Source: Nanobdellota archaeon
GTDB taxonomy: Archaea > Nanobdellota > Nanobdellia > UBA10117 > ARS21
Length of the DNA stretch: 38,186 nt
Assembly (NCBI GenBank): GCA_014240455.1
Contig: JAAZWY010000002.1
Coordinates: forward strand, 1 to 38,186
Direction: 5' to 3'
The notes beneath the pieces were generated by a model. The model was not told the origin of the DNA and searched no databases. It saw only the letters and a list, made by a program, of their open reading frames with translations. Below, piece by piece: positions 4,233-35,086 of the stretch (positions within the stretch are counted from its first letter, which is position 1; every line of letters starts with the position of its first letter). A program made the translations under genes and the position numbers.

Positions 4233-5309
4233 ATGGAGTTAATCAAAATTACTGAAGGTCAGACTAAATTATGGGTTCCTGATGCTGAGAAGTATAAGTT
4301 AGACTCCAAAATGCCCGTTTTCTTTAATCAAGTTATGCGCTTGAATCGAGATATTACGGTTGATATTGTTAAAACTCTCGACAAACCGAAGTCTTTGGAT
4401 TTATTGGCTGGAACTGGTGCAAAAGGTCTTCGCTTGGCTGTTGAGGCCAATTCCAAAGTTGATTTGAACGATGCAAATCCCTCTGCTGCAAAGTTAATTA
4501 AAAGGAATGCTAAACTGAATAAAGTTAGTGTTGAAGTGTTTAATGATAGCGCAAATAAATTGTTGAGAAAATCTCGACGAACTTATGATTTTATTGATGT
4601 TGATCCTTTTGGCACACCAGTTCCTTTCTTACAGGAAAGTATTGCTCATTTGAGAAAAGGCGGAATACTTGGGGTGACTGCAACTGATACTTCTGCTTTG
4701 TGTGGAACTTATCCAAAAGCTTGTATGAGAAAATATGAATCTTTGAATAGAAAAACTCAGATGATGTTCGAAATTGGAACTCGTATTTTGATAAAGAAAG
4801 TTGTGTCTGAAGGTTTGAATATGGGCGTTGCTCTTGAGCCAGTTTTTGTTCATAGCTCCAATCATTACATGCGAGTTTATTTGAGAAGAGTTGAGAACTT
4901 GAGAAAGATTCGAAAGAACTTGAAGTTTTTGTTTCTTTGTTCTGATTGCTTTACTTGGAAGTTTGAAGATAAGCTACCTGAAACAAAAGTTAGATGTGGT
5001 TGTGGAACTTATAGTGAAGTTTTGGGTCCTCTTTGGACTGGCAGTTTGTATGACAAGAAATTACTGAAACAAATGTCTGATTCAAACAAAACTGTTCAGA
5101 AAATCAAAGAAGAAGTTGATGTATTTGGATATTATGATTATCATATGATGTCGAAGAAACTTGAAGACGTTGGAGAACTACCTAAAATGGATGTTATTAT
5201 TGAAAAAATTCGTAAGAAAGGTTTCAAAGCAAGTAGAACTCATTTCTCTCCAACTGGAATTAAAACTAATTTACCTGCCAAGAGTTTTTTAAGATTGCTT
5301 TATTCTTGA
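4233..5309 (+). CDS. trm1: tRNA (guanine26-N2)-dimethyltransferase Trm1
   Basis: 358 aa. Contains FFNQVMRLNRD, the SAM-binding DLLAGTGAKGLR, DVDPFGTP and a C-terminal Cys cluster (CSDC...CGCG), matching archaeal Trm1. Confidence 0.88.
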   Translation: MELIKITEGQTKLWVPDAEKYKLDSKMPVFFNQVMRLNRDITVDIVKTLDKPKSLDLLAGTGAKGLRLAVEANSKVDLNDANPSAAKLIKRNAKLNKVSVEVFNDSANKLLRKSRRTYDFIDVDPFGTPVPFLQESIAHLRKGGILGVTATDTSALCGTYPKACMRKYESLNRKTQMMFEIGTRILIKKVVSEGLNMGVALEPVFVHSSNHYMRVYLRRVENLRKIRKNLKFLFLCSDCFTWKFEDKLPETKVRCGCGTYSEVLGPLWTGSLYDKKLLKQMSDSNKTVQKIKEEVDVFGYYDYHMMSKKLEDVGELPKMDVIIEKIRKKGFKASRTHFSPTGIKTNLPAKSFLRLLYS

Positions 5310-6277
5310 ATTCTTAATTCTTCTTCAGGTTCATCGACTTGACCCATGGCCAATCTTTCAGCTTCTCGCTTATTCTTTGCTTCTTCGATTAGCGGATCTA
5401 GATTTAGCTTTTCAATCATTTCCTTATACCTGTTTCGAATTGTAACTTCTGTTACTCCAACTACGTCTGCGATTTCTCTTTGAGTTCGCTTTTCTCCAGT
5501 AATTAGAGATGCTACGTAAAGTGCAGCTGCAGCAAGTCCTGTTGGACCTCTACCTGAAGTTAATTCAGATGTTTGTGCAATTTCTAAAATCTTTTGAGCT
5601 TGTGTTTGTGTTTCTGCTGAGAATCCAAGCTTGTTTGCAAATTTTGGAATGTATTCTCCAGCTCCGCTTGGAGCCATCTTAATACCTAATTCTCTTGCAA
5701 TAAATCTATATGTTTTACCAACATCTCTCTTGTTGTTGTTTGTTAGTTGGCAAACTTCGTTCAAAGATCTTGGAAGTTTGAATTGTCTTGAAGCGATGTA
5801 AATTGCTCCGACTACAACACATTCCATAGAACGTCCTCGAACTAATCCTTTTTCAACAGCCATTCTGTAAATTCTAGCTGCTTCTTCCTCAATAGTTGGA
5901 GGAATGTTTAGTAAAGATGAAATTCTCTTAAGATCTGCTAAAGCGTACTTTAGATTTCTTTCGAGAGATGTTGAAGATCTATTATGCCACTTTCTTAGTC
6001 GCAAATATTTTCTTCGATCTTTAACTGATAATTTATACACTTCAGAACTTGTACCTACTTCAGTACCTGTTCCCATGTCGTGCTTTGCATAACTTGATGG
6101 TGCTCCAGATCGTCTTTCATTTTGGCCTTCTCCGGAGAATTCTCTCCATTCTTGACCTTGATCGATCATGTTTTCGTCCATAACGAAACCACAGCTGTTA
6201 CAGACTATTTCTCCTCGTTTTTTGTCTACAGAAAGTTTTGTGCCTTGGCACTCTGGGCATGATTTTTTAGTTACCAT
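5300..6277 (-). CDS. tfb: transcription initiation factor TFB (TFIIB homologue)
   Basis: N-terminal zinc ribbon CPECQG...CNSCG, a B-reader/linker, two cyclin-fold repeats and an HTH region (QREIADVVGVTEVTIRNRYKE). There is a short acidic C-terminal extension. Confidence 0.95.
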   Translation of the reverse strand: MVTKKSCPECQGTKLSVDKKRGEIVCNSCGFVMDENMIDQGQEWREFSGEGQNERRSGAPSSYAKHDMGTGTEVGTSSEVYKLSVKDRRKYLRLRKWHNRSSTSLERNLKYALADLKRISSLLNIPPTIEEEAARIYRMAVEKGLVRGRSMECVVVGAIYIASRQFKLPRSLNEVCQLTNNNKRDVGKTYRFIARELGIKMAPSGAGEYIPKFANKLGFSAETQTQAQKILEIAQTSELTSGRGPTGLAAAALYVASLITGEKRTQREIADVVGVTEVTIRNRYKEMIEKLNLDPLIEEAKNKREAERLAMGQVDEPEEELRIQE

Positions 6278-6415
6278 TTTAAGTGTATTAACTCATCGAG
6301 GGTACGACAAGCTTTATAACACTATGCTCAACCGCGTTTATAAATGTTGTGAAATGTGGCGTTCTGAGCGTCCTACTGAGGTCTCTTTTAACGCCTCGTT
6401 TTGCCATTAGCAACT

Positions 6416-6423
6416 TTTATAAA
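6416..6423 (+). promoter_or_regulatory. TATA box for the rps12-rps7-rps6e operon
   Basis: tttataaa, centred ~28 nt upstream of ATG 6448. Confidence 0.55.
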
Positions 6424-6447
6424 CCCATGAGAAAAAGGGATACGTAC

Positions 6448-6891
6448 ATGGGAAATAAGTCTCGAGGACTAAATGCTGGAAAGAAATTATCCAAGCGTAG
6501 AAAGAAGTTCAGATGGGCAGACAAGTGGTATACACGAAGAGCTCTTGGACTAAAAGTTAAATCAGATCCTTTGAAAGGAAGTCCACAAGCACGAGCAATC
6601 GTTCTTGAAAAGAGACAAGTAGAAGCTAAGCAACCTAACTCTGCTTTGCGAAAAGCTGCTCGAGTTCAATTAATTAAAAATGGAAGACAAGTTACAGTTT
6701 TCCTTCCAGGAAATCTTGCAAGTAAGTTTATCGATGAACACGATGAAATTATGATTGAAGGAATGGGAGGTCACATGGGTAAATCTAAAGGTGATATTCC
6801 AAATATCCGATGGCAAGCATTCAAAGTTAATAGACAATCTCTACCTCAACTAGTAAAAGGTAAGGTAGAAAAGACAATTGGTAGAAAATAA
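6448..6891 (+). CDS. rps12: 30S ribosomal protein S12 (uS12)
   Basis: [45 protein letters not shown] is the uS12 core. The track ORF starts at 6349, but the TATA box tttataaa (6416-6423) sits ~28 nt upstream of ATG 6448. Confidence 0.94.
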
Positions 6892-6892
6892 A

Positions 6893-7651
6893 ATGGCTGA
6901 AAAAACAACTAATACAATAAAAGAAAAACCTGCTAAGGTTGAAAAGACTGAGAAAGTTGAAAAACCTGCTAAGGTTGAAAAGCCAAAGAAAGAATCTAAA
7001 CCAAAGAAAATTATTGCTAAATTGAATCCTTTCCAACAAAATATTAAAAATATGAAAATGTTTGGAAGATGGACTACTCAGGATGTTATTGTTTCAGATC
7101 CAGGTCTGAAAGCTTATATGAATCTTGATCCAATATTAGTTCCGACTTCTCTTGGAAGATTTACTGCAAAACAATTCTGGAAATCTAAAAGACCAATTAT
7201 TGAAAGACTTATGATCCGAATGTTTGTTGCAGGACACCGAGGTAAAAAACACGTTAGAACTTCTGGACACATGACTGGAAAGAAAATTAATGCTTACAAT
7301 GTTATAATTAGAACTTTTGAAATCCTTGAAGAAAAAACAAAAGGAAATCCGGTTCAAGCAGTTGTTGATGCTATTGAAGCAGCATCACCTCGAGAAGGAA
7401 TTACAACTATTGAATACGGTGGAGTTAGATATCCTCGTTCAGTAGATTTAAGTCCTCAAAAGAGAATTGACTTAGCTTTGAGATGGATTACTCAAGGTGC
7501 TTACGATAAGATGGTAAAATCAAAAGGTAAGAAAAGGATTGAACAAACTTTGGCAGAACAAATTCTAGCAACAATCAATTATGATCAGCAAGCTTCATTT
7601 GCATACTCAAAGAAGTATGATTTAGAAAGACAAGCTAAGGCAGCAAGATAA
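6893..7651 (+). CDS. rps7: 30S ribosomal protein S7 (uS7) with a probable ~53-aa Lys-rich N-terminal extension
   Basis: The canonical uS7 starts at MKMFGRWTTQDVIVSDPGLKAYMNL (ATG 7052). The frame stays open back to ATG 6893, one nt after the rps12 stop, and encodes KPAKVEK repeats. The true start is therefore either 6893 or 7052. Confidence 0.88.
   Translation: MAEKTTNTIKEKPAKVEKTEKVEKPAKVEKPKKESKPKKIIAKLNPFQQNIKNMKMFGRWTTQDVIVSDPGLKAYMNLDPILVPTSLGRFTAKQFWKSKRPIIERLMIRMFVAGHRGKKHVRTSGHMTGKKINAYNVIIRTFEILEEKTKGNPVQAVVDAIEAASPREGITTIEYGGVRYPRSVDLSPQKRIDLALRWITQGAYDKMVKSKGKKRIEQTLAEQILATINYDQQASFAYSKKYDLERQAKAAR
6923..6982 (+). repeat. 24-nt exact direct repeat (6923-6946 and 6959-6982), period 36 nt, inside the rps7 5' extension
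   Basis: gaaaaacctgctaaggttgaaaag occurs twice and encodes EKPAKVEK. Confidence 0.9.
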
Positions 7652-18285: not shown

Positions 18286-18819
18286 ATGAAATCTGGAATT
18301 AGAGCAATTGATTTTATGAATCACAAAGTGATTACTGTAACGCCCGATATGACGGTTAAAGAAGCTGCTAAACTTATGAACGTTCATAGAGTTGGTGGAG
18401 TTCCAGTTTGTGAAGGTAAGGAATTACTTGGGTTGTTAACTGAAAGAGATATTATGATGAGAGTTACTGCTCTTGACAAACTTCCTAGTTCTTTGAAAGT
18501 TGGACAAGTTATGCAAAGTCCTTTGAAAGCGATTGGTGAAAAATTCGAGGATTTATCAAGCCTTGCTAGAAAAATGAGTGAACATAAAATTTCTAAAATT
18601 CCGATTGTAGAAGATGGAAAATTGATTGGAATTGTTACAAATAAAGATGTTGTAGCTCACGCACCAGATTTATTAGATACATTTATTGAAAGATTGGCTG
18701 CAAGCGATAAAGGTCTGGCTGGTCATCCTGCTGCATTCGGACAATGTGAAGCTTGTGGTTCACATGGACATTTACATTTTCAAATGGATCAATTCATCTG
18801 TGATGATTGTATCAACTAA
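18286..18819 (+). CDS. CBS-pair domain protein with a C-terminal zinc ribbon
   Basis: Two CBS repeats (HRVGGVPV...GLLTERDI and HKISKIPIVEDGKLIGIVTNKDV) followed by CEACG...CDDC. Confidence 0.85.
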   Translation: MKSGIRAIDFMNHKVITVTPDMTVKEAAKLMNVHRVGGVPVCEGKELLGLLTERDIMMRVTALDKLPSSLKVGQVMQSPLKAIGEKFEDLSSLARKMSEHKISKIPIVEDGKLIGIVTNKDVVAHAPDLLDTFIERLAASDKGLAGHPAAFGQCEACGSHGHLHFQMDQFICDDCIN

Positions 18820-19571
18820 ATTAAAATTCCAATAAGATTTCTTAGACCTTGTGCAAATCCTAAAACAAATATTGCCAGTAGGATTAATCTTGAGAATTCT
18901 TTATCCTCACTTTTGTTTAACAAGTAAAGAATTGGAACAACAACCGCCAATTTTAGTGGAATAAATGAAAATGACGAACCTGTTTTTTCTATTACAAAAC
19001 GAGGTAGTACATGTTTTTCAAATCCTCCAAACAGAGATAAAATTAATGCTGTGTTTACTGCGTCAAAAAGTTGTCCAGTATATGCAAAGATTGTTAATTT
19101 ATTTTTGAACCAATCTTGTTTGAATTTATTTGCGAGAATTATGCTGATCCAAACTCCGGCAACTAGAATGAAAATTATACCTGTAAGATAGTTTAAGTTT
19201 TGAAAAGTTGGGATTCCGTATCTTATTGGGATAAATAGTATTGCTAAAGCTCCTAGTAATCTTGGTCTTCTTAGAAATAATCCTACTAAGAATATTACAG
19301 TCATTGTTAGATATATTCCTGGGCTTACGCTTAGGAAGGTTTTTGGAATTAAATTAATGTCAACATATGCACGAGTTAATGCTCCGAGAAAAATGTAAGG
19401 AATTAGATCAATAGCTAACGCAGAATTAATTTTTATGTTTCGCTTCTGAAATAATTTATGTATTAAGAATAATCCTCCGAATGCCAATAGTGCGTAAGTT
19501 AGTGTGTTTACAACATTGTATTCATAAGTTGCATTAAATGGCTCAATAAAATATTTTTCTAGAAGTGCCAT
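18816..19571 (-). CDS. polytopic membrane protein, possibly DUF63 family
   Basis: 251 aa with about 7 hydrophobic helices. From memory, the N-terminal YNVVNTLTYALLA resembles the archaeal DUF63 signature. The family assignment is tentative. Confidence 0.55.
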   Translation of the reverse strand: MALLEKYFIEPFNATYEYNVVNTLTYALLAFGGLFLIHKLFQKRNIKINSALAIDLIPYIFLGALTRAYVDINLIPKTFLSVSPGIYLTMTVIFLVGLFLRRPRLLGALAILFIPIRYGIPTFQNLNYLTGIIFILVAGVWISIILANKFKQDWFKNKLTIFAYTGQLFDAVNTALILSLFGGFEKHVLPRFVIEKTGSSFSFIPLKLAVVVPILYLLNKSEDKEFSRLILLAIFVLGFAQGLRNLIGILI

Positions 19572-20056
19572 CCGCTATCTTCTTCCTCTTCTTCAAGTGC
19601 TGGTTTCTTTTGTTGTTCAGGCTGTTGGAAAGGTTGTGGTTGAACTGGTTGTGGTGCAGGTTGAACTGGTTGTTGTGGTTGAGAAGGTTGTTGTGGATTG
19701 AATGGATTTATTTGAGGTCTTGCTGGTTGTGGTGCAGGTTGAACTGGTTGTGGTCTTGGTTGTGCATTAGATCTTCCTTCAATAGTGGACATTCGTTGAG
19801 ATATTGAATCCATGTTTCGTTTTAATTGTTCAAGCGTTGAGGTAAGTAATTGTACGCTTCTTTGTATTGAATCTAATTTTTCATTACTTGGCGCAGCAGA
19901 AGGTATTTGTGTAAATCCTGAACTTGGACTTGAGTGATCCATATCCGCAGAAGGTCCTGGAACAGCAGTTCCGCTAGGTTTTCCAAATTTTTCGTCAAAA
20001 TGAGGGAACTCTTCTTTCTTTTTCTTCAGGGGATTAATTTTATCCAGAAGCGCCAT
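19559..20056 (-). CDS. hypothetical coiled-coil protein with a P/Q-rich low-complexity region
   Basis: 165-aa ORF with a TATA box (20078-20085) ~25 nt upstream. It has a coiled-coil segment (LDSIQRSVQLLTSTLEQLKRNMDSISQRMSTIE), a PQPVQPAPQP repeat region and an EEEEEDSGWHF C-terminus. It overlaps the downstream membrane gene by 13 nt. Confidence 0.6.
   Translation of the reverse strand: MALLDKINPLKKKKEEFPHFDEKFGKPSGTAVPGPSADMDHSSPSSGFTQIPSAAPSNEKLDSIQRSVQLLTSTLEQLKRNMDSISQRMSTIEGRSNAQPRPQPVQPAPQPARPQINPFNPQQPSQPQQPVQPAPQPVQPQPFQQPEQQKKPALEEEEEDSGWHF
19645..19751 (-). repeat. 29-nt exact direct repeat (19645-19673 and 19723-19751) in the P/Q-rich coding region
   Basis: ctggttgtggtgcaggttgaactggttgt occurs twice, 78 nt apart, and encodes QPVQPAPQP. 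Confidence 0.88.
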
Positions 20057-20140: not shown

Positions 20141-21526
20141 ATGCCTAGAAAAAAGTCTAAAGGTGCTTCAAAGATTGAAAAAGCACTCTGGAAAAAGGTG
20201 GATTCGAAGGAAATTCACTATGAAAACTTTGCTGAAGGCATTGAGAAATTCTATTTTTGGGTTACAGATTTTATGGAGAGCACGCTACACTACAAACTTA
20301 GTAAAATTGAAGACACTTCATTCGCTAGTGTTGGTTCCTCGCAGTGGGGATTGATTGAGCAGAGAAAATCAATTCAGCAAGATAAAGCTGCACAATATAT
20401 GGGAACTATAGGTGGAATGATTAAGAGTATGATGCAAATTTACAAGGAATTGAAAATTATTGATGAGCGACTTAATTATTACAGTGAAGCAGATACTGGA
20501 AGTGTTGCTGCTGAGATTGCTCTGAAATCTCTTTGGATTGATTTAGTTGAAGGTGGTGCAAAACAACCAACTTCAGTTCTTGGTCTTGCATCTCAAGTTG
20601 GATTTGTTACTTTGCCTGACTTGTTCTTTAATATAACTCCGAAGGATTCTAAATCTGTTGATAAGGCAGTGGATAATTCTAAAATTGAGACTAATGTTCA
20701 AGTTAAAAATATCTTGAAACGAAAGTTAAAACAGTATATGACTTGGCGAGACCGAACTAAATCTGAATTGGCAACTCGTCGTTATTTCAATATTAAATAT
20801 TTGGCTCAGCACTTTAACGTAATTAAAATGTATGGTGATTGGGCAAAGCCTTATTTACAAAATATTGGTAGATTGAATCAAAAGGTTCAGGAAGACTATT
20901 CATATCAGTTGCTTGAAGGAAGTGAGAGTACGGTTGCAGATATTGAGTTAATGGGTCAAAGGAAGATAAAGGAGCGTGACACTGAATTTGATAAAGTCTT
21001 TCCAATAATGGTTGTAAACTTTCATCACCGAACTCGTCCAGTTAGTGCATATCAGCAAGAACAGCATAGAGGAAGTCTACATATTGGTAGAGTTGAAATA
21101 AAATTTACAAGTTATCTTGCGAATAAAAAAGGACTTGATGATTATAAAAACAAAAAGAAAACTGAAACCTTGAAACTTCTTAAGACGGTTGATGCTTCAA
21201 TGAGCGCTCTGTTAGATAGTCCAGATTCTAAAGCTGAGTTTGAAGGTTATTTGAAAGAAGCTGAAGGGATTAAGGAGAAACAAGCCGAGGATGAAAAGAA
21301 AGTAAAGGGAAAATCTAGTTTTGGTGGTTTTGAGATTTTTATCCCTGAATATTTTAAGAAAACTCAGAGAGACGCTCGCTTGAAATCTAAATCAAGTAAG
21401 AAACCAAAAAGAGGTTCTGATGACTTGACTGATGAAAAATCACTTGCTAAAATTATTGCAAAGGAAGATGTTGGAACTATTTTTAAGACATTTAAGATTG
21501 TCCACGGAATGTTGGTAAGAAGTTAA
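20141..21526 (+). CDS. hypothetical protein (461 aa), first gene of an orphan operon
   Basis: Long ORF with a TATA box (20114-20121) ~24 nt upstream. It has no P-loop, TM segment or signal peptide and ends in a lysine-rich C-terminal third. I recognise no family. Confidence 0.65.
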   Translation: MPRKKSKGASKIEKALWKKVDSKEIHYENFAEGIEKFYFWVTDFMESTLHYKLSKIEDTSFASVGSSQWGLIEQRKSIQQDKAAQYMGTIGGMIKSMMQIYKELKIIDERLNYYSEADTGSVAAEIALKSLWIDLVEGGAKQPTSVLGLASQVGFVTLPDLFFNITPKDSKSVDKAVDNSKIETNVQVKNILKRKLKQYMTWRDRTKSELATRRYFNIKYLAQHFNVIKMYGDWAKPYLQNIGRLNQKVQEDYSYQLLEGSESTVADIELMGQRKIKERDTEFDKVFPIMVVNFHHRTRPVSAYQQEQHRGSLHIGRVEIKFTSYLANKKGLDDYKNKKKTETLKLLKTVDASMSALLDSPDSKAEFEGYLKEAEGIKEKQAEDEKKVKGKSSFGGFEIFIPEYFKKTQRDARLKSKSSKKPKRGSDDLTDEKSLAKIIAKEDVGTIFKTFKIVHGMLVRS

Positions 21527-21527
21527 A

Positions 21528-22022
21528 ATGATTGGTCCAAAAGAATGGGAAGAATTGAAAAATGAAATTTCTAAGCTTAATCCTATTTTAAGAATGAAAC
21601 GATTGAAGGAAGCTCTTATTCGTGCATCGGATTCAAAACTTAAGAGTGAAATTAATGAATTGATTTTGAAATCTGAATCTGATTCAATTGAATTCTTTGA
21701 TTCTCGCGCTGCTAAACCTACTGTGTCTTCTTCTCTTGAAAAGTTAGTTAGTGGTAAGAAATTTGAGGAAGGGCGAAATGATAGAAAAATTGAAGATATT
21801 GCTATGGAAGAAAGTAGTCTGACTGATTCTGAAGTTAAGAAAAAGGCAGTGAATTATGATCCTAACAAAAAGACTGAGTTTTATGATTCTGATAATGATT
21901 CATTGAGTGATGCCTATAAACCAACTGAACATAATGCTCATGAAATTGAGTTTGAAGAAAACAGCTTAAATAAAAGAAAGGATTATGTAAATAGAGAGGA
22001 AATGGATTTTAATGGCGCATGA
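21528..22022 (+). CDS. hypothetical acidic protein (164 aa)
   Basis: Starts 1 nt after the upstream stop and overlaps the downstream start by 11 nt. It is acidic and probably helical or disordered. Confidence 0.55.
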   Translation: MIGPKEWEELKNEISKLNPILRMKRLKEALIRASDSKLKSEINELILKSESDSIEFFDSRAAKPTVSSSLEKLVSGKKFEEGRNDRKIEDIAMEESSLTDSEVKKKAVNYDPNKKTEFYDSDNDSLSDAYKPTEHNAHEIEFEENSLNKRKDYVNREEMDFNGA

Positions 22023-23958
22023 TCATAGTCACGGACACAAGCATAGTCCTGAGACTCCTGAAGTTCCTAAATATTGGCATTCTATGGACTCAACTCAATG
22101 GAGTTCTGAATCAGATAGAATTAAATTAGGAATAAGTACTCCTCCAATGCAGGATCAGCTTCAAAGTATTCAGGCGCGTATTCGTCAAGGTGCTCAAGCA
22201 GTAGAATTAGGATTTATAGGAACTGGAAAGGGTTCAGCAGGTCAAGGTAATTTTACTCCCGGAACAGTTGGCATCCCTGAGCGAGAAGCTATTAGAGATA
22301 TTGCAAAAGTTAATGACGTTAAAATTTCTTCAGTACATGCATCTATGAAAATTCAAGGTTTGGCTGGTTTTGATGGACGACAGGGATTCAGTGAAGCTAA
22401 ACGAGCCATGGATATGGAAGAAGTTAAAAGAACTATTGATTTTGCTGGAGACGTTACTGATGGAGGTGCAATTGTTGTTCATACTGGTGAGTTTCCGTAT
22501 AGCGTTCAGGGAAAGCATGGTGAAACGCCATTTAAAACTAAAGGAGGTAAACCGATTCAGTTAAGTGAAGGACAGGCTATAGCTCAGAGATCGGCTCAAT
22601 ATTTGGTTAATACAAAAACTGGAAGAGTTGCTTCTGAAATAACTCCCGATTTTGAAGTTGATTTCTTGGAGAAGAAAAAAGATTCTAGAGAACTAGAGTT
22701 TGAAAAGAAAACAAGAAAATATGGTTGGTTTGTTGATAAGGCTAAAGCAAATCTGGCTAGCAAAGAACTAATTGATGAGAACAAGACTGAATATAGCGAA
22801 CATAATCAAGGAATGAAATTGAGTAACGAGGAATACAAAAATACTTACGGTGATCCTGGATGGGTTGCGTTGCATTTTCAAATTAAAGAAGGTATTACAC
22901 AAAGCAAATCTGATGAACTTTGGCACAGGGCAAGATATCGAGAATATAAAAATGATTTTGATCAGTCTAAGATTCAGTTAAAATTGGCAGAAGCGTTGCA
23001 TTCACGTTCAGGTATTGCTGTTCCTGATGCGGAAGGGAAAAATCGTATCGATGCTTTGCGTCATAAAGTTGACATTTCTGAGCATCATGTTAAGGCTGAA
23101 GAAGAATACATAAAGAAATATGATCTCCAGCGGAAAAATGCTTATGATCAATTGTATAATATACGTCCAATTGAATCGTATGGTGTAAATAAAACTTCTG
23201 AATCTATTGCAGAGCTTGCACTTGATGCTGCACGAGTTACTCGTGATAAGAACTTAAAGAATCCATTGTTCGTTGCTCCCGAAAACTTATGGGGTGATCA
23301 ATATGGTGCACATCCTAAAGATTTACGAAAAATCATTGTTGATTCTCGATCCAAGGCTGTTGAATATATGACTGCTGATAAAATTAAGATACATGGTGAG
23401 GAAGTTAAAAATCCATTCAAAGGTAGAGTCAAGAAAGCACTCGGACATATGCCTTCTAAATCTGAGGCAAAAAAAATTGCCGAGAATCATATCAAAGCAA
23501 CTTTTGATATTGGACATGCGAACATTTGGAAAAAATATTTTTCTGGAGATGAAAAAGAATTCAATTCTTGGTTAGGTCATGAAGTTGATAAATTAACCAA
23601 AGACGGAATTATTGGACATGTTCACGTATCCGATAATTTTGGATATAATGATGAACATTTACCGCCTGGCTACGGAAATGCTCCAATTAAAGAATTCTTA
23701 ACTCATATGCAGAAATCTGGATTTGATAAAGAATATATTGTTGAACCTGCACACCATGATGTTGGTGCGCTTCATGCAGGAATGGAATTCTTACAAACTC
23801 CAATTTATAGAATTGATACTCAAACTCATCGATGGACTTCTCCTGAAAGGTCTTACTTTGGACAGACACACGTTCCGGGATTTGTTACTCCCGGATATTT
23901 GCCACACTCAGGCGGAGAACAAAAACCCATGGTTTGGTCTGAATTACCATTAGAATAA
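22012..23958 (+). CDS. xylose-isomerase/endonuclease-IV-like TIM-barrel metalloprotein with a large insertion and a His-rich N-terminus
   Basis: AP_endonuc_2-type strand-end motifs appear in order: AVELGF, SSVHAS, IVVHTGE, LFVAPEN, TFDIGHAN, GHVHVSDN...DEHLPPG, YIVEP. About 230 aa of charged helical sequence lie between HTGE (aa 157-160) and APEN (aa 422-425). The N-terminus is MAHDHSHGHKHS. Confidence 0.7.
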   Translation: MAHDHSHGHKHSPETPEVPKYWHSMDSTQWSSESDRIKLGISTPPMQDQLQSIQARIRQGAQAVELGFIGTGKGSAGQGNFTPGTVGIPEREAIRDIAKVNDVKISSVHASMKIQGLAGFDGRQGFSEAKRAMDMEEVKRTIDFAGDVTDGGAIVVHTGEFPYSVQGKHGETPFKTKGGKPIQLSEGQAIAQRSAQYLVNTKTGRVASEITPDFEVDFLEKKKDSRELEFEKKTRKYGWFVDKAKANLASKELIDENKTEYSEHNQGMKLSNEEYKNTYGDPGWVALHFQIKEGITQSKSDELWHRARYREYKNDFDQSKIQLKLAEALHSRSGIAVPDAEGKNRIDALRHKVDISEHHVKAEEEYIKKYDLQRKNAYDQLYNIRPIESYGVNKTSESIAELALDAARVTRDKNLKNPLFVAPENLWGDQYGAHPKDLRKIIVDSRSKAVEYMTADKIKIHGEEVKNPFKGRVKKALGHMPSKSEAKKIAENHIKATFDIGHANIWKKYFSGDEKEFNSWLGHEVDKLTKDGIIGHVHVSDNFGYNDEHLPPGYGNAPIKEFLTHMQKSGFDKEYIVEPAHHDVGALHAGMEFLQTPIYRIDTQTHRWTSPERSYFGQTHVPGFVTPGYLPHSGGEQKPMVWSELPLE

Positions 23959-23970
23959 ACTCTACCAAAA

Positions 23971-23978
23971 TTATTTAT
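23971..23978 (+). promoter_or_regulatory. TATA box for the 270-aa NTase-HEPN gene
   Basis: ttatttat(ag), centred ~26 nt upstream of ATG 24002. Confidence 0.5.
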
Positions 23979-24001
23979 AGTCTGAAGCATACTATTTGAT
24001 T

Positions 24002-24808
24002 ATGAAGTTTAAGTATCAACGACGAGCCAATAATCTTGAATCAAAATATCCTAAACTTGATAGAGATCTTGCACGGAAGTTTGCTAAAATTGTCAATGCT
24101 GAGTTGGGCGATTTAGTTTCAGCACTTGTTTTGTTTGGTTCTGCTGCACGAGGAAGTTCTAATAAAAGTAGCGATATTGATATTTTGATTGTTACTGATG
24201 ATGTTCATATTAATATGAATAAAGAGTTGGTTGAAACTTATCGTATTATTATACAAAAGGCAGTTGCAAAAGTTAACCCAGATAGACTTCATATTCAAAC
24301 TTTACCACTTACTACTTTCTGGGAATATGTTCGAGCAGGTGATCCGGTTGCAGTTAATATTTTGCGAGATGGAATTGCTTTGATTGACAAAGGTTTCTTT
24401 GACCCTCTTCAACTTCTATTATTGAATGGTAGAATAAGACCTTCTGGAGAATCAGTTCATACCTATATGAATATGGCATATTCTAGTTTAAATCGTTCAA
24501 AATCTGGTCTTGATAATGCTATTGTGGACCTTTATTGGGCGACGATTGATGCTGCTCATGCTGCCCTTATGAGTGTTGGAGAAGTACCAACCTCTCCTAG
24601 CGCGGTTGCAGATATGATTGATGAAAAACTTGTCAAACAGAAATATGTTACTAAGAAATACTCTGACATAATGCGGCATATGTATGAAGTCTCTAAAAGA
24701 ATTATGAAGCGTGAGCTTAGTAGTCTTGATGGTAAAACCTATGATCGATATCTAAAACACACTGAAGATTTTGTTGAAGCTATGAAAAGGGTTGTAAATC
24801 GTAAATAA
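24002..24808 (+). CDS. Pol-beta-superfamily nucleotidyltransferase fused to a HEPN-like helical domain
   Basis: LFGSAARGSSNKSSDIDILIVTDD is the minimal NTase G[SG]...D.D motif. The C-terminal ~130 aa are helical, in a HEPN/KNTase_C-like arrangement. The track start is TTG 23996, but the TATA box at 23971-23978 favours ATG 24002. Confidence 0.75.
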   Translation: MKFKYQRRANNLESKYPKLDRDLARKFAKIVNAELGDLVSALVLFGSAARGSSNKSSDIDILIVTDDVHINMNKELVETYRIIIQKAVAKVNPDRLHIQTLPLTTFWEYVRAGDPVAVNILRDGIALIDKGFFDPLQLLLLNGRIRPSGESVHTYMNMAYSSLNRSKSGLDNAIVDLYWATIDAAHAALMSVGEVPTSPSAVADMIDEKLVKQKYVTKKYSDIMRHMYEVSKRIMKRELSSLDGKTYDRYLKHTEDFVEAMKRVVNRK

Positions 24809-25534
24809 TTAATCTAAGTATTCCATTAATTCTTCTAGATTTTCAATGCCAATTCTTGCTCCCATTTCTGGAAGATTTCCGTTTATCAGACCAATAAGTC
24901 CTGCTGTTTCTAACTTATCAGAAACTTGATTAATTATTTCTGAGTTTTCAGCCAAATAAGCAAGATGATCTGGTCTAGTTATTAAACTATTCATTAAGTT
25001 AACAATTATGTTTTCAACTAATTCTTTAGTTTCTCCTTCAACTTCAGCGTGATAATCAATAGAGTTTGTTAGATAGTTTACAATGTTCTCAGATCCTTCA
25101 TTTATTACAAATCTTGCTGGAGATAATCCGTCACCCAGATTGTTTAATAATCCGTTTAAGTTAGCTAGATTTGTTGGATCTGCCTGATAATTATTCATTG
25201 CTTCAGTTGGAATTATTTCAGAAGAATGTGCCATTAATCCCGCCCTCAGGGGAATATCCTCATTTATTTCTTCAATAGTTCTTTCATGACCGTATGCTTT
25301 AGAAGTAAGTTCTAATAGGAACTCATTGATTTCATTATATGCAACTGCATCGTTTTTATCTCGAGCATCAATAATTTTTTGCATTAATTTATAATGTGCT
25401 TCAGTTTTGAAGTCTCCTATCTCTTCACCAACTTCTATTAATTTTTGTGCATATAGCCATTCTGTCATATATTTTGCCCCAATTTTTGGTTTAAAAGCGT
25501 TTCGTTCAAGAAATTGGAGAATGTTAGAAAACAT
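24809..25534 (-). CDS. hypothetical acidic helical protein (241 aa)
   Basis: Long ORF wedged, on the opposite strand, between the two NTase-HEPN genes. Its stop abuts the stop of the 24002-24808 gene. No recognised motif. Confidence 0.55.
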   Translation of the reverse strand: MFSNILQFLERNAFKPKIGAKYMTEWLYAQKLIEVGEEIGDFKTEAHYKLMQKIIDARDKNDAVAYNEINEFLLELTSKAYGHERTIEEINEDIPLRAGLMAHSSEIIPTEAMNNYQADPTNLANLNGLLNNLGDGLSPARFVINEGSENIVNYLTNSIDYHAEVEGETKELVENIIVNLMNSLITRPDHLAYLAENSEIINQVSDKLETAGLIGLINGNLPEMGARIGIENLEELMEYLD

Positions 25535-25540
25535 TTAAAA
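25533..25540 (+). promoter_or_regulatory. TATA box for the 615-aa NTase gene, overlapping the start codon of the divergent gene
   Basis: atttaaaa, centred ~26.5 nt upstream of ATG 25563. It overlaps the - strand ATG at 25532-25534. Confidence 0.5.
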
Positions 25541-25562
25541 CCATGTGTCTCGTTTGTAGTTT

Positions 25563-27410
25563 ATGGTTAATAGTTCAAATTCTTCTCAAGATTTAGCAAG
25601 TAATGATAAATTGAAAGAGATGTTTGGTAAATTTAAAGAGTCTCAACAAGGTTCCAAGCAAAAAGCATTGGAGGATTTGAATAAAACTCTTGATAAAGTT
25701 CAACCAACTGCTGAAAAGATAAGAGATTCTTTACTAAAACGGCATAAGAAGGAAATACTTGGTGCAGTTTTGACCATGCGACCTTCTGCTCCAAAACCTG
25801 GTGAAAAGCCTACAATGAACCCTAATTTAATTATTGTTTCTGAGTTGAGGAATAAATCTCCAAAGGAAAAGATGACTCATATTGCAGAGATTGAGAAAGA
25901 TGGAAACAGTATGACTAAAACAAGTGGTCTCAAAGTTACTTCAATTTTACTTGAAGAAATCTGGGATTTTGCAACTCGAGGTCAATATGATATTATGCGT
26001 AGTATTGTTTCAGGTAGATTGATTCATGATGAAGGTGATTGGATAAAATCTTTGAAGGCTGTTGAGATTCATAAGATTAAGATGCTTAAGAAGTTTGAGA
26101 AGTATGTCGTTTCTTATGTTATGGCAGGATCTCTTATTCGAGGAGAAGCAAATTCTGATTCAGATATTGATGTTTCTATTGTAATTGATGATACTGACGT
26201 AACTAGAACTACTTCTAATGAATTGGTTTTGCGACTAAGAGATATTTCTGCTAAGTTTGCAAGAGAGTCTGAAAGAGAAGTTGGAATTCGAGGTAAACTC
26301 AATATTCAAGTTTGGATTCTGACAAGGTTATGGGAAGGATTACGTAGAGCCGAACCAGTATTTTATACTACTATTAGAGATGGAGTTCCACTTTATGATC
26401 GAGGAATGTTTGCACCTTGGAAGTTAATGCTTAAGCGCGGTCTTCTTACTCCGACTCCTGAATCTATTCAAAAATATATCAAAGATGGTAAGAATTATTT
26501 GAACAGAATTAAGCTGAAGTTTAGAGATATTGCTATTGAGGATTTATTTTGGTCAACAATTTTTCCAGCTCAAGGAGTATTAATGTTGTTAGGAGTTCCT
26601 CCAGGAAGTCCAAATCATATCTCTGGACAATTGCGAGAACACATGGTAAAAAAGGGTCATCTTGAAGAAAAGTATGTCAAGATCTGGGAACGATTGCATA
26701 AACTGAGAAAAGATGTTGAGTATGGAAAAGTCAAGGAAGTTAAACTTGAAGTTATGACTAAGAATTATAATGATGCGGTTGGATTTGTTGAACGAATTGA
26801 AAAAGCATACAAAGATATTGAGAAGAAGTTGATTAATTCAAAGATTAAAGCTGTTAAATCAAAGTCGGTAGAAGATGCTCAACTGGTTCTCAAAGTTGCA
26901 GGAGTTAAAGCAAGTAAGAGTGGTGTAAAAAATGCATTGAAATCTGAATTAATTGCCAAAGGTCTTGCTAGTTCAAAATATTTAGAGTTAATTAATTCTG
27001 CAGGAAATCTGGATAGTAATCGATCAAGTTTGACTGAAGTTGAGAGTTTAGAATTCGGTTTGGATAAAGTTCGAGATGAAACTATTGATATTATTAATGC
27101 TGAAAAAGGTTTGAATAAAGATCGATTTAGGCTTCTATTGAGATATGGTTCTGGCGAAAATCAAAGAACTGCGCATTTGTGGTTGTTTAACACTGAAGTG
27201 TTTATTGTTAAAATGGGTTCAGGTCAGGCAGAGATTGTTAAGTATGAAGTCGGTAAGAAGGGTGTATTGCAAAACGGTAAATCAAGTACTTTGAAAGTTC
27301 TTGAGAAAAAATTAGCAACTTTTGATGGTGCTCCAACTCAAGTTTCGACAAAAATGATTTCTTCTCTGAAAGAATTATTGGATAATAATTTGAGAATGTT
27401 TGTAGGTTAA
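25563..27410 (+). CDS. large nucleotidyltransferase-HEPN protein with an extra degenerate NTase-like module and a C-terminal extension
   Basis: MAGSLIRGEANSDSDIDVSIVIDD is an intact NTase motif. It is followed by a HEPN-like domain (LHKLRKDVEYG) that can be aligned by eye to the 270-aa neighbour. The N-terminal aa ~60-165 repeat the post-NTase motif (ILLEEIWDFATRGQYDIMRSIVSGRLIHDEGDW) but lack GS/DxD. Confidence 0.72.
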   Translation: MVNSSNSSQDLASNDKLKEMFGKFKESQQGSKQKALEDLNKTLDKVQPTAEKIRDSLLKRHKKEILGAVLTMRPSAPKPGEKPTMNPNLIIVSELRNKSPKEKMTHIAEIEKDGNSMTKTSGLKVTSILLEEIWDFATRGQYDIMRSIVSGRLIHDEGDWIKSLKAVEIHKIKMLKKFEKYVVSYVMAGSLIRGEANSDSDIDVSIVIDDTDVTRTTSNELVLRLRDISAKFARESEREVGIRGKLNIQVWILTRLWEGLRRAEPVFYTTIRDGVPLYDRGMFAPWKLMLKRGLLTPTPESIQKYIKDGKNYLNRIKLKFRDIAIEDLFWSTIFPAQGVLMLLGVPPGSPNHISGQLREHMVKKGHLEEKYVKIWERLHKLRKDVEYGKVKEVKLEVMTKNYNDAVGFVERIEKAYKDIEKKLINSKIKAVKSKSVEDAQLVLKVAGVKASKSGVKNALKSELIAKGLASSKYLELINSAGNLDSNRSSLTEVESLEFGLDKVRDETIDIINAEKGLNKDRFRLLLRYGSGENQRTAHLWLFNTEVFIVKMGSGQAEIVKYEVGKKGVLQNGKSSTLKVLEKKLATFDGAPTQVSTKMISSLKELLDNNLRMFVG

Positions 27411-27826
27411 ATTAATTGAACATTTCTTACGTTTTGATGATACATTTTTACTATTTCTTTAAGTTGTCTCAAAGTCTTTTTGCCATTACCGTTTAGTTTT
27501 TTTCTGTCTGCAGGATTCTTTAACAATATTGCCAAAGTTCCTCGAACAACTTTTGAGGAATTGAATGGAATTGGATAAATGAACTTTTCAATTGTATCCT
27601 CCATTGTTTTACCTCGTTCAACAATTTTGATATCTTTCTTTAACGCGTGACTTATTGCTTTGACTTTTTCTCCGTTTTGTCCAACTGCTTTTTTTGCAGA
27701 GCCACTTTCTACAACAAAAATTATTGATCCGTCAACACCCATACAATTTATTGGTGAAACTCCGGTCTTATCTTTGAAAAAGGCCATCGTTCGGATGGTG
27801 TGGTTATCTAAACTAATAGTTGGCAT
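27407..27826 (-). CDS. nusA: archaeal NusA-like protein (two KH domains)
   Basis: 139 aa. A KH GxxG-like VGQNGEKVK motif, and the conserved position after rpoA''-rpl30e. Confidence 0.85.
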   Translation of the reverse strand: MPTISLDNHTIRTMAFFKDKTGVSPINCMGVDGSIIFVVESGSAKKAVGQNGEKVKAISHALKKDIKIVERGKTMEDTIEKFIYPIPFNSSKVVRGTLAILLKNPADRKKLNGNGKKTLRQLKEIVKMYHQNVRNVQLI

Positions 27827-27831
27827 GATAA

Positions 27832-31781
<3,950 letters not shown>

Positions 31782-31785
<4 letters not shown>

Positions 31786-33596
31786 TGTTTTGACCTCTTT
31801 TGCTTGAATTTATCTTTTAATTTTAATTGTGGTCTGATTCCCATAGCTTTTAGTTGTTCAATTAGTAACTTGAATCCGTAAGCCATTTCGACCTTTGAAA
31901 CTGTTTCCTTTGGATCCACTACGCTAGTGAATCTATCAGTAAATGAATCATATTCTGCAATATCTCCCGATCGGTCTCCAATATTTACTATGTCTTTGTC
32001 TGAACTGAACCTTTCTTTCAATAGTAATGAAGATCCGTGAGCGATTAGTGTGTCTTTTTCCATGTCTCCGAATCGAAGTCCACCTTCCATTGCTTTACCT
32101 GCAGTAGGTTGTCTTGTTAGTAATGCAACTCTACCTCTTGCTCTGGATTGAACTTTGTCTGCGACTTGATGCTTTAGTCTTAAATAATAAATGTTTCCTA
32201 CGAAAATCTTTGCTTCATAAGCTCTACCTGTTCTTCCGTCGTATAAAGTTTCAGTTCCGTTTTCTCTGAAACCTAATTCTTCTAATTCTTTTCTTAGATC
32301 TTCTGAAGGTTCTCCACTAAATGGAGTTCCGTCAACATATCGTCCGCTTAGAGCTCCAACTTTTGCTCCAAGAGATTCGATTAGGTGAGATACGGTCATA
32401 CGACGCATACCGAATGGGTTGAATAATATATCTGGTACTGTTCCAGATGAACTGAATGGCATATCTTCTGGATTTGCAATGTGTCCAATAACTCCTTTTT
32501 GTCCGTGTCGAGAAGATACTTTATCTCCAACACCGATTGGTCTTGTGTCTCGAACTTCAATGTTTACTAGTGGATTACCGTCTTTGGATTCAGTTAACAG
32601 AACTTTGGAAACAGTTCCGTTTTCTCCGAATTTAACTTTTACAGATGTGTCCTTTCTGATGTTTGCCGCTGTGCTGAAAGTTTCAAGTCTTGATAAGAAT
32701 CTTGGAGGTGATGTTTTACCAACAAGCACTTCTCCACCACGTACGTGCGTTTCAGGACTAACTAATCCATCTGTGTCTAAATTTTTATAGTGTGCTTCAG
32801 TTGAATATCCTTGTACGTCTTTATCTGGTACTTTAATATCATCAATTTGACCGCCCGGATATCTTCGTCTTTCTGCTGCATAAGGTCTGTAGTGAGATAC
32901 TCTTGAAAGTCCTCGATCAATAGATGCTCGATTTACTACAACTCCGTCAGACATGTTGTAACCTTCGTAATTTAGGATTGCAATTACCAGGTTTTGTCCA
33001 CCAGTGATGTGTTCACCGTACATATCTTGAGTGAATGATTTTACAAGTGGTTTTTGAGTATAATGTAGAACGTTAACATTTGTGTCTAATCGATTTAAGT
33101 AATTTAGTGCGTACAGAGAAGTTCCTTGTTGTTGATTTTTTTGTCCTCTTAGAAGACGTGTTGAGGGATTGAAGTTTGCAAATGGAATCATAGAAGTATT
33201 CATACCAAAAATTACAATTGGATCAATTTCCAAGTGTGTGTGTTTCTTTGTTAAATCTTTTTCATTCATCGCAACCAATGCTGATTCTTCTTCAAGTGCA
33301 TCGATTTCTTCAACAATTCCGTTTTCGATTAATTCTGTCCAACTCATCTTTCCTGCATTTAATTCTTCAAGATGTTTGCTTGTTAAAAGTGATTTACCTT
33401 CTTGAACAATAATTAGCGGTCGTCGAAGTCGGTTTTTGTCAAGTTGGATTTTGATAATGTCTTCTTCTTCGTTGTATAGAATATTAAGGTTCTTTGAGAA
33501 TTTTCCTGCACGTCGTTCTTTGATAGTATTCTTTACAAACTTTTCAGCGTCCTTTACTGTTCCCTGTAATACTCCATCAATGAATACGTAGCTCAT
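31782..33596 (-). CDS. rpoB1: DNA-directed RNA polymerase subunit B' (C-terminal half of Rpo2)
   Basis: GDKVSSRHGQKGVIG, NPFGMRRMTVSHLIE and GGLRFGDMEKD motifs. 4-nt overlaps with both neighbours. Confidence 0.97.
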
Positions 33597-35086
33597 CCTT
33601 TAATTTCCTCCAAACCAATTTTTTGTAAGCTCTTTAAGTTTTTGCTGTATTCTGAAGCTTGTAATTCTGTTGTGATTGTTCCAGTTAAAGCTAGAGTTTT
33701 TCTTAGACCGATATTCTTACCTTCTGGAGATTCAATAGCACAAAGTCTTCCCCAGTGTGTTGGGTGTAAAGCTCTTGCTTCAAAAGATTCTCTGTTTGAA
33801 TCTAGTAAAGATGTTACTCTTCTAAGTTGAGAAATTGCTGCAATTGGATTATCTCTTTCAAGTCGTTGAGAAACTCCTTGTCTGTTTCCTGTCCAATTTC
33901 CAGTTCCCATTGCTGAACGAATCTTTTCAGTCATGAACTTTGATCTTACAAGAGATGCGATTGGAATTATTTTTCCTCGTCTTACTCCTCTAGTGAAAAT
34001 GTAAATTATATCATTCTTCAAACCTTTGAAGTTTGTTCTGAATAAATCTTCAAGAAGGTCTCCTGCCATTCTGATCCTTTTATTCATATAGTGATCTTTG
34101 TCATCTGCTTGAATTTTGTCTTCTCTTAGAAGAATTGTTTTTCTAATCATTTGAGCAAGGAAATATGCTTTATTCATTCTTGCTTTCTTGTCTGTTCCCA
34201 AGTGAGGTAAAAAGATTGTGTCAAGAATAGATTCAACTTTCTGAAGTTTTCTGTCTTTTGGAAGTGCAATTTGCAAACTCTTTGAAATGAATTCTTTTGC
34301 TTCTTCTTGATTTGTTACACTCATGAATTCAACTAGATTGATATATAGATCTTCAGGGATTTCTTTGAATCCAACTGCATCTGCAATATCTTTATCTTTA
34401 GTCATTCCTAATGCTTTCAGGATTACTGTGAATGGAACTTTCTTTACGTTGCTGAAACTTACTTGGAATATTCCTTCCTTTGTTCGTTCAACTGTGTGTG
34501 AGATTTTATAAGTATCAATTGCTGAGAAAACTTTTGCGAAGTGTGTAATTGGTCCTGTCTTTTCTTTGTTTACAGTTATTTGATTTGGAGCTAAGTCTTC
34601 AAGTAAAACTAATGCTCTTTCAGTTCCGTTTACAATGAAATATCCACCAGGATCCATTGGATCTTCTCCAGATTCAATCATTTGATCTTGAGTTAAAGTT
34701 GATAAGTAGCAAAGTTTTGATTGAACCATTACTGGGATTTCTGCGATTTGAACTTCTGCTCTATCTCGTTCTTTTCCGTCGACAATTAATGCGATTTCTA
34801 AGAATACTGGTGCAGAATAAGTAAGATTTCTCATTCGTGCTTCAGCAGGATAAAGTGGTCTTTCTGAACCGTCTGCTTCAATAATAATTGGCTTTCTTAG
34901 AGATAACTCTGCGAATTCAAATTTAACTTCTTCTGCGTCAACTGGAATAACTGCTGGCATCAATTCTCGTTCAGCATCAACAACTTTTTGCATTCTCCAG
35001 TCAATAAATGAATTATAAGAATCAATGTTGCTTTTTACAAATCTATGTTCTTCGAAGAATTTCTTGATAAGAATTTGTTTGTTCAT
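33593..35086 (-). CDS. rpoB2: DNA-directed RNA polymerase subunit B'' (N-terminal half of Rpo2)
   Basis: 497 aa. YFIVNGTERALV, THWGRLCAIESPEGKNIGL and other Rpo2 N-terminal half motifs. A GGAGG Shine-Dalgarno lies 5 nt upstream. Confidence 0.96.
   Translation of the reverse strand: MNKQILIKKFFEEHRFVKSNIDSYNSFIDWRMQKVVDAERELMPAVIPVDAEEVKFEFAELSLRKPIIIEADGSERPLYPAEARMRNLTYSAPVFLEIALIVDGKERDRAEVQIAEIPVMVQSKLCYLSTLTQDQMIESGEDPMDPGGYFIVNGTERALVLLEDLAPNQITVNKEKTGPITHFAKVFSAIDTYKISHTVERTKEGIFQVSFSNVKKVPFTVILKALGMTKDKDIADAVGFKEIPEDLYINLVEFMSVTNQEEAKEFISKSLQIALPKDRKLQKVESILDTIFLPHLGTDKKARMNKAYFLAQMIRKTILLREDKIQADDKDHYMNKRIRMAGDLLEDLFRTNFKGLKNDIIYIFTRGVRRGKIIPIASLVRSKFMTEKIRSAMGTGNWTGNRQGVSQRLERDNPIAAISQLRRVTSLLDSNRESFEARALHPTHWGRLCAIESPEGKNIGLRKTLALTGTITTELQASEYSKNLKSLQKIGLEEIKG

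Follow-up and report, generated by a model that had tools for sequence, protein, structure and literature searches.

Positions 24002-27410 of a 38,186-nucleotide (nt) contig of a Nanobdellota archaeon (GenBank assembly GCA_014240455.1, contig JAAZWY010000002.1; this whole stretch is referred to here as the window) carry two plus-strand genes in which a Pol-beta-type nucleotidyltransferase (NTase) domain is joined to a four-helix HEPN-like domain. The short gene, A (24002-24808), encodes 268 amino acids (aa) and the long gene, B (25563-27410), 615 aa, both called as open reading frames (ORFs). A gene for a very acidic protein lies antisense between them (24809-25468), and a gene for a TIM-barrel protein lies on the plus strand directly upstream of A (22012-23958). 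A preliminary description of this DNA regarded the two NTases and the acidic protein as a possible toxin-antitoxin or defence system. Our analysis favors another interpretation, to which we assign a probability of roughly one half: A and B are core enzymes that DPANN archaea inherit vertically, active NTases with a HEPN-like platform that is not an RNase, and A works in concert with the TIM-barrel enzyme.

The longest version of the A reading frame begins with a TTG at 23996, and the ATG at 24002 is most likely the start codon. A TATA-like box (ATTATTTATAG, 23972-23982, plus strand) lies approximately 25 nt upstream of this ATG and a box resembling it precedes B (25533-25541, plus strand); as read from the sequence, both may function as promoters.

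Domain architecture of the two paralogs

A and B are clearly paralogs, with 35% identity over 204 aa (BLASTP, E 3e-35), and no third copy of the family is found within the window. Pfam NTP_transf_2/Polbeta matches cover residues 27-101 of A (3e-10) and 175-228 of B (5e-5). On the basis of alignment, secondary structure and Foldseek matches (MntA, HalB, ANT), the NTase domain of A comprises residues 18-141 (24053-24424, plus strand), with G46-S47, D58-x-D60 and D66-D67, and the active-looking NTase module of B, delimited by Pfam and alignment, comprises residues 170-290 (26070-26432, plus strand), with G189-S190, D201-x-D203 and D209-D210-T-D212. The motif of minimal nucleotidyltransferases (MNT), G-S-x(9-13)-D-x-D, is present in both, and the GS, the DxD and the acidic pair following it are invariant across 38 aligned sequences of type A and 46 of type B. 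A linker motif, FWEYVRAGDPVAxNILRDGxxLxDxGFFxP, also ranks with the best conserved segments of both proteins. The paralogy, the Pol-beta motifs and the shared linker were all recognized in the preliminary description and are confirmed here, with the refinement that in the AlphaFold models the linker motif comprises the final two helices and strand of the NTase domain together with the interdomain segment.

B was also thought to contain an inactivated N-terminal duplicate of the NTase, and profile comparisons bear this out. The N-terminal module (residues ~50-166) matches the active module of B with an hhalign probability of 95.6% (E 1.2e-8) and the NTase of A with a probability of 90%. In the profile alignment P-x takes the place of GS and the DxD is gone, and the WD...G...D linker motif is retained; based on hhalign and the model, the degenerate module is delimited to residues 62-166 (25746-26060, plus strand). 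In the AlphaFold model of B, strands and helices succeed one another in the same way in residues 65-156 as in residues 182-279. Searches of Pfam, NCBIfam, PADLOC and PHROGs with A and B returned nothing beyond the NTase core, with matches in NCBIfam, PADLOC and PDB to MntA, HalB, ANT and the PADLOC models PDC-S09 and PDC-M05A that are far under the family cut-offs, and PDB searches with single sequences and profiles returned NTase cores alone, plus a sub-threshold match to AF0298.

The models of A and B (mean predicted local distance difference test scores, pLDDT, of 82 and 85; predicted TM scores, pTM, of 0.53-0.56) both comprise an alpha/beta NTase domain followed by four long helices, i.e., residues 149-266 of A (24446-24799, plus strand) and 299-445 of B (26457-26897, plus strand). 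Over both domains, Foldseek matches A and B with HalB, AadA, ANT(9) and ANT(4')/KNTase, and the helical domain of B matches the UPF0332 HEPN protein AF0298 (PDB 2hsb) with a probability of 1.0 and a TM score of 0.71. At the sequence level the match of the B profile to AF0298 is sub-threshold (E 0.24) and no Pfam HEPN model matches A or B. The helical domains of B and A are related to each other with an hhalign probability of 99.5%, and relatives of both are annotated by JGI as “nucleotidyltransferase / UPF0332 family.” The HEPN-like fold that had been suggested for these domains is thus supported by the predicted models, mostly at the level of structure. The UPF0332/COG2250 proteins such as AF0298 differ from B in being stand-alone proteins of ~125 aa, whereas the domain is fused to an NTase here.

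B continues with a C-terminal extension (26904-27407, plus strand; alignment, model and hhalign) that is conserved across its orthologs. Its first helices (residues 448-514) resemble HEPN helices 2-3 (hhalign probability 75-88%). For the beta-rich remainder (residues 519-615) Foldseek returned no informative match, and no fold family was assigned to it. Pfam, NCBIfam, PADLOC and PHROGs gave no match for the extension, and a Foldseek comparison of B with viral models returned generic NTases alone. The order of domains in B is, therefore, degenerate NTase, NTase, HEPN-like domain, partial second HEPN-like domain and beta domain. The stop codon of B (27407-27410) shares 4 nt with that of the convergent gene for a NusA-like KH-domain protein, the last gene of the RNA polymerase operon.

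The RNase motif of HEPN domains, Rx4-6H, which the preliminary description could not find by eye and recommended to look for, is absent from A and incomplete in the B of the window. At the equivalent site B reads R382-K-D-V-E-Y387 (26706-26723, plus strand; alignment), with Tyr instead of His. R382, K383 and E386 are invariant in all 46 B sequences (R-K-D-x-E), and position 387 is His in 31 of them, Tyr in 13, including the window (RKDVEY), Ala in one and Thr in one. A has no conserved Rx4-6H motif and no Arg at this site, which reads S-K-x-I-x-(H/K) in the family and S-K-R-I-M-K in the window. An Aenigmarchaeota member of the family reads RKKVEH and a Parvarchaeota member YKSLEH. Because of this distribution of His and Tyr behind an invariant R-K-D-x-E in B, and of the residues in the other two phyla, the RNase motif looks ancestral; it is partly eroded and, judged from the alignments, incomplete in both proteins of the window genome.

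These residues bear directly on the possibility that A and B are a domesticated toxin-antitoxin system. B, and ancestrally A, would then resemble FhepTA, a type of fused MNT-HEPN toxin-antitoxin protein described in 2026 (PMC13000451): a HEPN RNase would be held in check by self-AMPylation through the fused NTase and freed under stress or infection, and the whole would have become fixed in DPANN archaea as a growth or defence switch. R-K-D-x-E-H at the expected HEPN site in 31 of the 46 B sequences and its counterpart in the Aenigmarchaeota member are in line with this idea; the Tyr in 13 of the 46 and the lack of the Arg in A are not. FhepTA proteins do share with A and B an MNT-type GS...DxD core and a HEPN fold C-terminal of the NTase, and in architecture and size A (268 aa) is like FhepTA (276 aa). 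However, their R-phi-x-x-x-H motif is active and has a Tyr next to it, whereas A has no such motif and the B of the window has R-x4-Y.

Distribution, selection pressure and synteny

A scan of contigs representing one genome per species in GTDB revealed at least 539 stretches encoding a relative of A, from which 80 loci on 80 different contigs were kept. These are from Woesearchaeota, Pacearchaeota or Nanoarchaeia, barring some probably mislabeled records. The proteins in the databases that are nearest to A and B are named Candidatus Nanoarchaeia, Woesearchaeota or DHVE6 and originate from marine metagenomes. The homologs of A (n = 1427) have a nearly constant length of ~268-275 aa and 53-99% identity; those of B (n = 1029) are mostly ~570-670 aa long. 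An exhaustive profile search for A yielded 922 clusters at 50% identity, the named members of which belong to Woesearchaeota, Parvarchaeota (Ca. Rehaiarchaeum, 247 aa) and Aenigmarchaeota (441 aa). A and B are near-universal in Woesearchaeota and Pacearchaeota and have relatives in other DPANN phyla. They probably occur as single copies, with one locus per contig among the 80 loci kept, and for at least 12 A/B pairs matching longest-contig entries in the homolog tables suggest that the two genes share a contig. One B-type protein (P0240) is labeled “Acidobacteriota” and several A loci are labeled “uncultured Methanosarcinales” or “Euryarchaeota SM23-78”; these labels are probably binning or naming errors and not true occurrences outside the DPANN archaea.

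The ratio of nonsynonymous to synonymous divergence (dN/dS; Nei-Gojobori estimates) is 0.04-0.08 for A and B, compared to 0.05-0.08 for RpoA'' in close comparisons and 0.08-0.26 for the TIM-barrel gene, and the values for A and B are also under that of NusA. A is 89-93% identical between genomes in which synonymous sites are saturated. Both genes are, therefore, under very strong purifying selection and evolve as slowly as RNA polymerase subunit A''. Their neighbors are the RNA polymerase operon, ribosomal proteins, Trm1, TFB and aIF5B, and mobile-element genes were not found around A or B at any locus examined.

Synteny was compared over 90 loci, including one each from Parvarchaeota and Aenigmarchaeota (L089 and L090). 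B lies next to A solely in the clade of the window and in a few other lineages; in most loci it is not within 9 kb of A, and in five it is found 3.6-7 kb away on the opposite strand. In one Woesearchaeota locus (L015, 589-3100) a B-type gene (570 aa) lies directly downstream of A, separated from it by 5 nt and by no ORF.

Distribution, context and selection are, therefore, the opposite of the pattern of a toxin-antitoxin or defence system. FhepTA genes occur patchily, in prophages and genomic islands; A and B are core, syntenic and slow-evolving. For the domesticated toxin-antitoxin system outlined above this means that near-universal, probably single-copy and syntenic genes with dN/dS of ~0.05, free of any mobile-element context at the loci examined, would have to be accommodated. 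The PADLOC models PDC-S09 and PDC-M05A, which would lend it some support, match the NTase core alone, and no HEPN partner model is matched. Consequently, we consider a domesticated toxin-antitoxin system unlikely, and the toxin-antitoxin or defence role initially proposed for the locus is not supported: the genes are neither patchy nor mobile, they have housekeeping neighbors, and their RNase motif is absent or incomplete. As a discovery of a defence or toxin-antitoxin system, the finding does not hold.

The system was also believed to be undescribed, which is only half true in view of FhepTA and of a family noted by Makarova, Wolf and Koonin (2019; PMC6393860). These authors listed a DPANN-specific cluster, cls.004259 (NEQ050), present in 36 out of 67 DPANN genomes, as “MNT fused to HEPN ... 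typically in house-keeping context.” They first termed it “most probably a toxin-antitoxin module” and remarked on its unusual conservation, and their coverage amounts to one table line and a few sentences. Compared by description only, cls.004259 and A/B are alike in combining MNT and HEPN in one polypeptide, in their restriction to DPANN archaea, in their housekeeping context and in their wide conservation; A and B fit that description and would belong to this type of family. The published account does not include the pair of short and long paralogs, the degenerate NTase module, the link with a TIM-barrel protein or the state of the Rx4H motif. The family has thus been noted already, although not characterized, and the paralog pair, the dead NTase module and the cross-phylum link to the TIM-barrel protein appear to be undescribed in the literature searched.

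The genes flanking A

The most stable neighbor of A is the TIM-barrel gene. A TIM-barrel protein of 530-680 aa is encoded directly upstream of A, and in the same direction, in most of 88 loci; the two genes are 0-200 nt apart in roughly half of the loci and 0-70 nt apart in many. The same pairing with an NTase-HEPN gene occurs in Parvarchaeota (gap of 24 nt) and Aenigmarchaeota (gap of 70 nt), where the TIM-barrel genes are located at 5394-6977 (L089) and 5279-6931 (L090). Hence it is the pair of TIM-barrel and NTase-HEPN genes, and not the arrangement of A, acidic gene and B, that is the deeply conserved unit, found in three DPANN phyla. Two genes whose function was not assigned, encoding proteins of 461 and 164 aa (20141-22022, plus strand in the window), usually precede the TIM-barrel gene and form a syntenic block with it in the Woesearchaeota and Pacearchaeota loci examined. 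The 461-aa protein has a basic tail; Pfam and PDB gave no match for either protein, nor did NCBIfam, PADLOC or PHROGs for the 461-aa protein.

The TIM-barrel protein belongs to the AP_endonuc_2 family and is MJ1311-like (Pfam 2e-15; PDB match to MJ1311 1.5e-10). In the window it has a His-rich N-terminus and a K/E-rich insertion of ~250 aa that splits the barrel. H109, H157, E424, D499, H502, H538, D547, H549 and E578 are invariant, and the local motifs around them correspond to those of the nine metal-binding residues of E. coli endonuclease IV (Nfo). An hhalign comparison with Nfo was nevertheless not significant (E 0.46), and the core profile of the protein scores 29 bits with FrlC vs. 1.6 bits with Nfo. 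All NCBIfam matches are epimerases or isomerases, and the best scores are with MJ1311, FrlC, YcjR and tagatose epimerases. On this sequence-based evidence, a nucleic-acid end and a sugar-like compound would both be compatible as substrates.

This similarity to epimerases is one reason to consider that A acts in a small-molecule pathway, as an ANT-like enzyme nucleotidylating a hydroxyl group of a sugar-like metabolite supplied by an epimerase-like TIM-barrel enzyme, for example in envelope, glycan or salvage chemistry specific to DPANN archaea. The retention of the TIM-barrel/A pair across phyla would fit such a pathway, as would the fact that aminoglycoside nucleotidyltransferases are the best full-length structural analogs of A and B: ANT(4')/KNTase, AadA/ANT(3'')(9) and ANT(9) likewise combine an NTase with a HEPN-related helical domain lacking the RNase motif, and they provide the best full-length Foldseek matches (1kny, 6un8, 5lpa, 6xz0). 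Sequence similarity to these enzymes is, however, confined to the NTase core, with a best NCBIfam match of 25.6 bits vs. a cut-off of 340 and both A and B far under the ANT cut-offs. The high root mean square deviations, furthermore, reflect a different domain orientation in the models, and the organisms, gene context and conservation are not resistance-like. Conservation at the level of RNA polymerase would be unusual for peripheral metabolism, nucleic-acid binding would equally account for the Arg, Lys and aromatic residues that never vary in the linker and the HEPN-like domain, and the TIM-barrel residues mirror all nine of the endonuclease IV metal ligands. A small-molecule pathway, therefore, seems to us improbable, to much the same extent as a domesticated toxin-antitoxin system.

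On the other side of A lies the acidic gene. Its longest ORF extends to 25534 (241 aa) and carries a net charge of -23. The start is most likely at Met23 (25468), because two clusters of homologs begin at the equivalent residue and a TATA-like box, which would be its promoter, is read from the sequence ~25 nt upstream (25489-25495, minus strand). The protein would then comprise 219 aa instead of the 241 aa originally given, and the divergent spacer between its start and B would measure ~94 nt instead of 28. The ORF is a real gene, as had been assumed, since there are six clusters of homologs, the frame is kept and dN/dS is below 1. These six clusters, with identities of 98-40%, are all that were found among 5.8 billion proteins and are confined to the closest clade; Pfam, NCBIfam, PADLOC and PHROG gave no match. 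Its dN/dS of 0.24-0.6, vs. 0.05-0.08 for the flanking genes, is accompanied by dS of ~0.8-2.1, at or near saturation, so that positive selection is not claimed. The acidic protein is only 45% identical in a genome with 98% identical RpoA'', and its counterparts are 25-54% identical between genomes in which A is 89-93% identical.

In ~50 loci, a small ORF (80-310 aa) runs convergently up to the stop codon of A, with or without an adjacent B (e.g., 9801-10370 in L012 and 6352-6933 in L013). By BLASTP almost all of these ORFs are singletons, they are not all acidic, and the acidic ORF shows no homology (BLASTP, hhalign) with the antisense ORFs of L001, L003, L005 and L006. With phmmer a few of the ORFs in this slot can be linked, including the acidic family to those of L012 and L014 (E 1e-5). 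We read the slot after A as a site of hypervariable, lineage-specific or hyper-diverged genes and not as the place of a conserved third component. Several of the slot ORFs begin with MAE/MAD-K-x-P-x-Y/F. In eight loci (L035, L036, L037, L055, L063, L067, L082 and L088) A is followed by a conserved co-directional ORF of 183-214 aa and no convergent small ORF is present, and in seven others by a large convergent ORF family (432-1760 aa).

The model of the preliminary description, in which the three genes form one module and the acidic protein inhibits the NTases or mimics their substrate, is difficult to maintain in the light of this slot. The order of A, antisense ORF and B does recur in the clade of the window and a few other lineages (L001, L003, L006, L012-L014, L016 and L051), the phmmer link reaches two of these, and the acidic ORF is maintained with dN/dS below 1. 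However, the acidic family is limited to the closest clade, the ORFs at the same position elsewhere are mostly unrelated to it or hyper-diverged and not uniformly acidic, and the acidic ORF diverges far more than the adjacent A. L015 has both A and B with no ORF between them, and although B is located elsewhere in most loci, A is still followed there by a small convergent ORF. A conserved partnership between the acidic protein and the NTases is consequently very unlikely. Instead, the acidic gene would be an independently transcribed, fast-diverging and lineage-specific gene that came by chance to occupy the variable slot after A.

Proposed function in DPANN archaea

With invariant catalytic motifs in both families, A and B most likely each act as a Pol-beta-type nucleotidyltransferase. 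The HEPN-like domain would be a platform for binding of the nucleoside triphosphate or the substrate, as in ANT/KNTase, AadA, GlnE and HalB, and not a toxin RNase. This role as a binding aid is suggested by analogy, since the HEPN superfamily includes motif-less domains fused to NTases, i.e., those of the aminoglycoside nucleotidyltransferases and of GlnE/GlnD. B is probably a duplicated derivative in which the dead module stands in for a second protomer, resulting in an intramolecular pseudo-dimer. A would cooperate with the TIM-barrel metalloenzyme encoded just upstream. As to the substrate, a conserved cellular molecule would be expected; we would guess first at the 3' end of a nucleic acid or at a protein side chain that becomes nucleotidylated. 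Identification of A as a CCA-adding enzyme was rejected, as a related genome contains a separate class I CCA enzyme near its A.

The closest match to A, both by sequence (E 8e-6) and by Foldseek (3e-6), is HalB, the oligodeoxyadenylate synthase of the Hailong system (PDB 9dbh/9dbj), which also consists of an NTase and a helical domain. In contrast to this structural likeness, the sequence alignment is limited to 32 residues (residues 43-75) and the NCBIfam score is 36 bits vs. a cut-off of 190. A gene for a HalA-like channel was not found near A, and PADLOC gave no match for the neighboring genes.

Several observations weigh against the interpretation of A and B as core NTases with a non-RNase platform. 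The presumed position of the third catalytic carboxylate reads H-x-Q in A. B retains the invariant R-K-D-x-E followed by His in most of its orthologs, with RKKVEH in the Aenigmarchaeota member, and an RNase function for part of the B family, in the orthologs bearing this His, is a minority possibility. The TIM-barrel protein is nearer to sugar epimerases than to endonuclease IV, which would fit a small-molecule substrate better than a macromolecular one. Finally, with pTM values of 0.53-0.56 the packing of the domains, and hence the pseudo-dimer, for which a structure prediction had been recommended, is not established by the models.

A more far-reaching version of the preferred reading is conceivable, although we think it rather doubtful: A and the TIM-barrel protein, acting as a metallo-phosphoesterase or isomerase, would form an essential DPANN-wide two-enzyme system, with B as a second, pseudo-dimeric NTase, for a reaction that other archaea perform differently or not at all. 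The R-K-D-x-E-[H/Y] of B would then be a phosphate-binding or self-nucleotidylation site derived from an ancestral HEPN RNase center. Candidate reactions would be the healing and nucleotidyl tailing of RNA 3' ends or the nucleotidylation of a host-derived metabolite on which the symbionts depend.

DPANN archaea have very few lineage-specific conserved genes. A toxin-antitoxin-like fusion that evolves at the pace of RNA polymerase, exists in short and long forms and is linked across phyla to a TIM-barrel enzyme may, therefore, serve a core function that only these ultra-small symbionts possess, and would be a clear case of the recruitment of a fold from conflict systems to housekeeping. Finding out what it acts on would settle one of the more strongly conserved puzzles of DPANN biology.

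The remainder of the window (G+C content of 35%) is dominated by housekeeping genes, i.e., those for Trm1, TFB, aIF5B, GlmS, ribosomal protein S7, a split RpoB, RpoA', RpoA'', L30e, the NusA-like KH protein and tRNA-Asp. RNA polymerase subunit B is encoded by two genes (497 and 604 aa) with a 4-nt overlap (31782-35086, minus strand). Next to the gene for a DUF63 membrane protein (18816-19571, minus strand) is one for a protein of 165 aa that has a coiled coil and a tail rich in P and Q (19559-20056, minus strand); related loci keep this pair, in divergent orientation upstream of the 461-aa gene. In a comparison of positions 24002-29219 with locus L010, dS is uneven, with values of 0.20 for RpoA'', 0.16 for L30e and 0.43 for NusA, and of 0.77 for A, 0.74 for B and 1.03 for the acidic gene. 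This discontinuity in synonymous divergence points to a recombination mosaic whose breakpoint would lie close to the junction of B and NusA.

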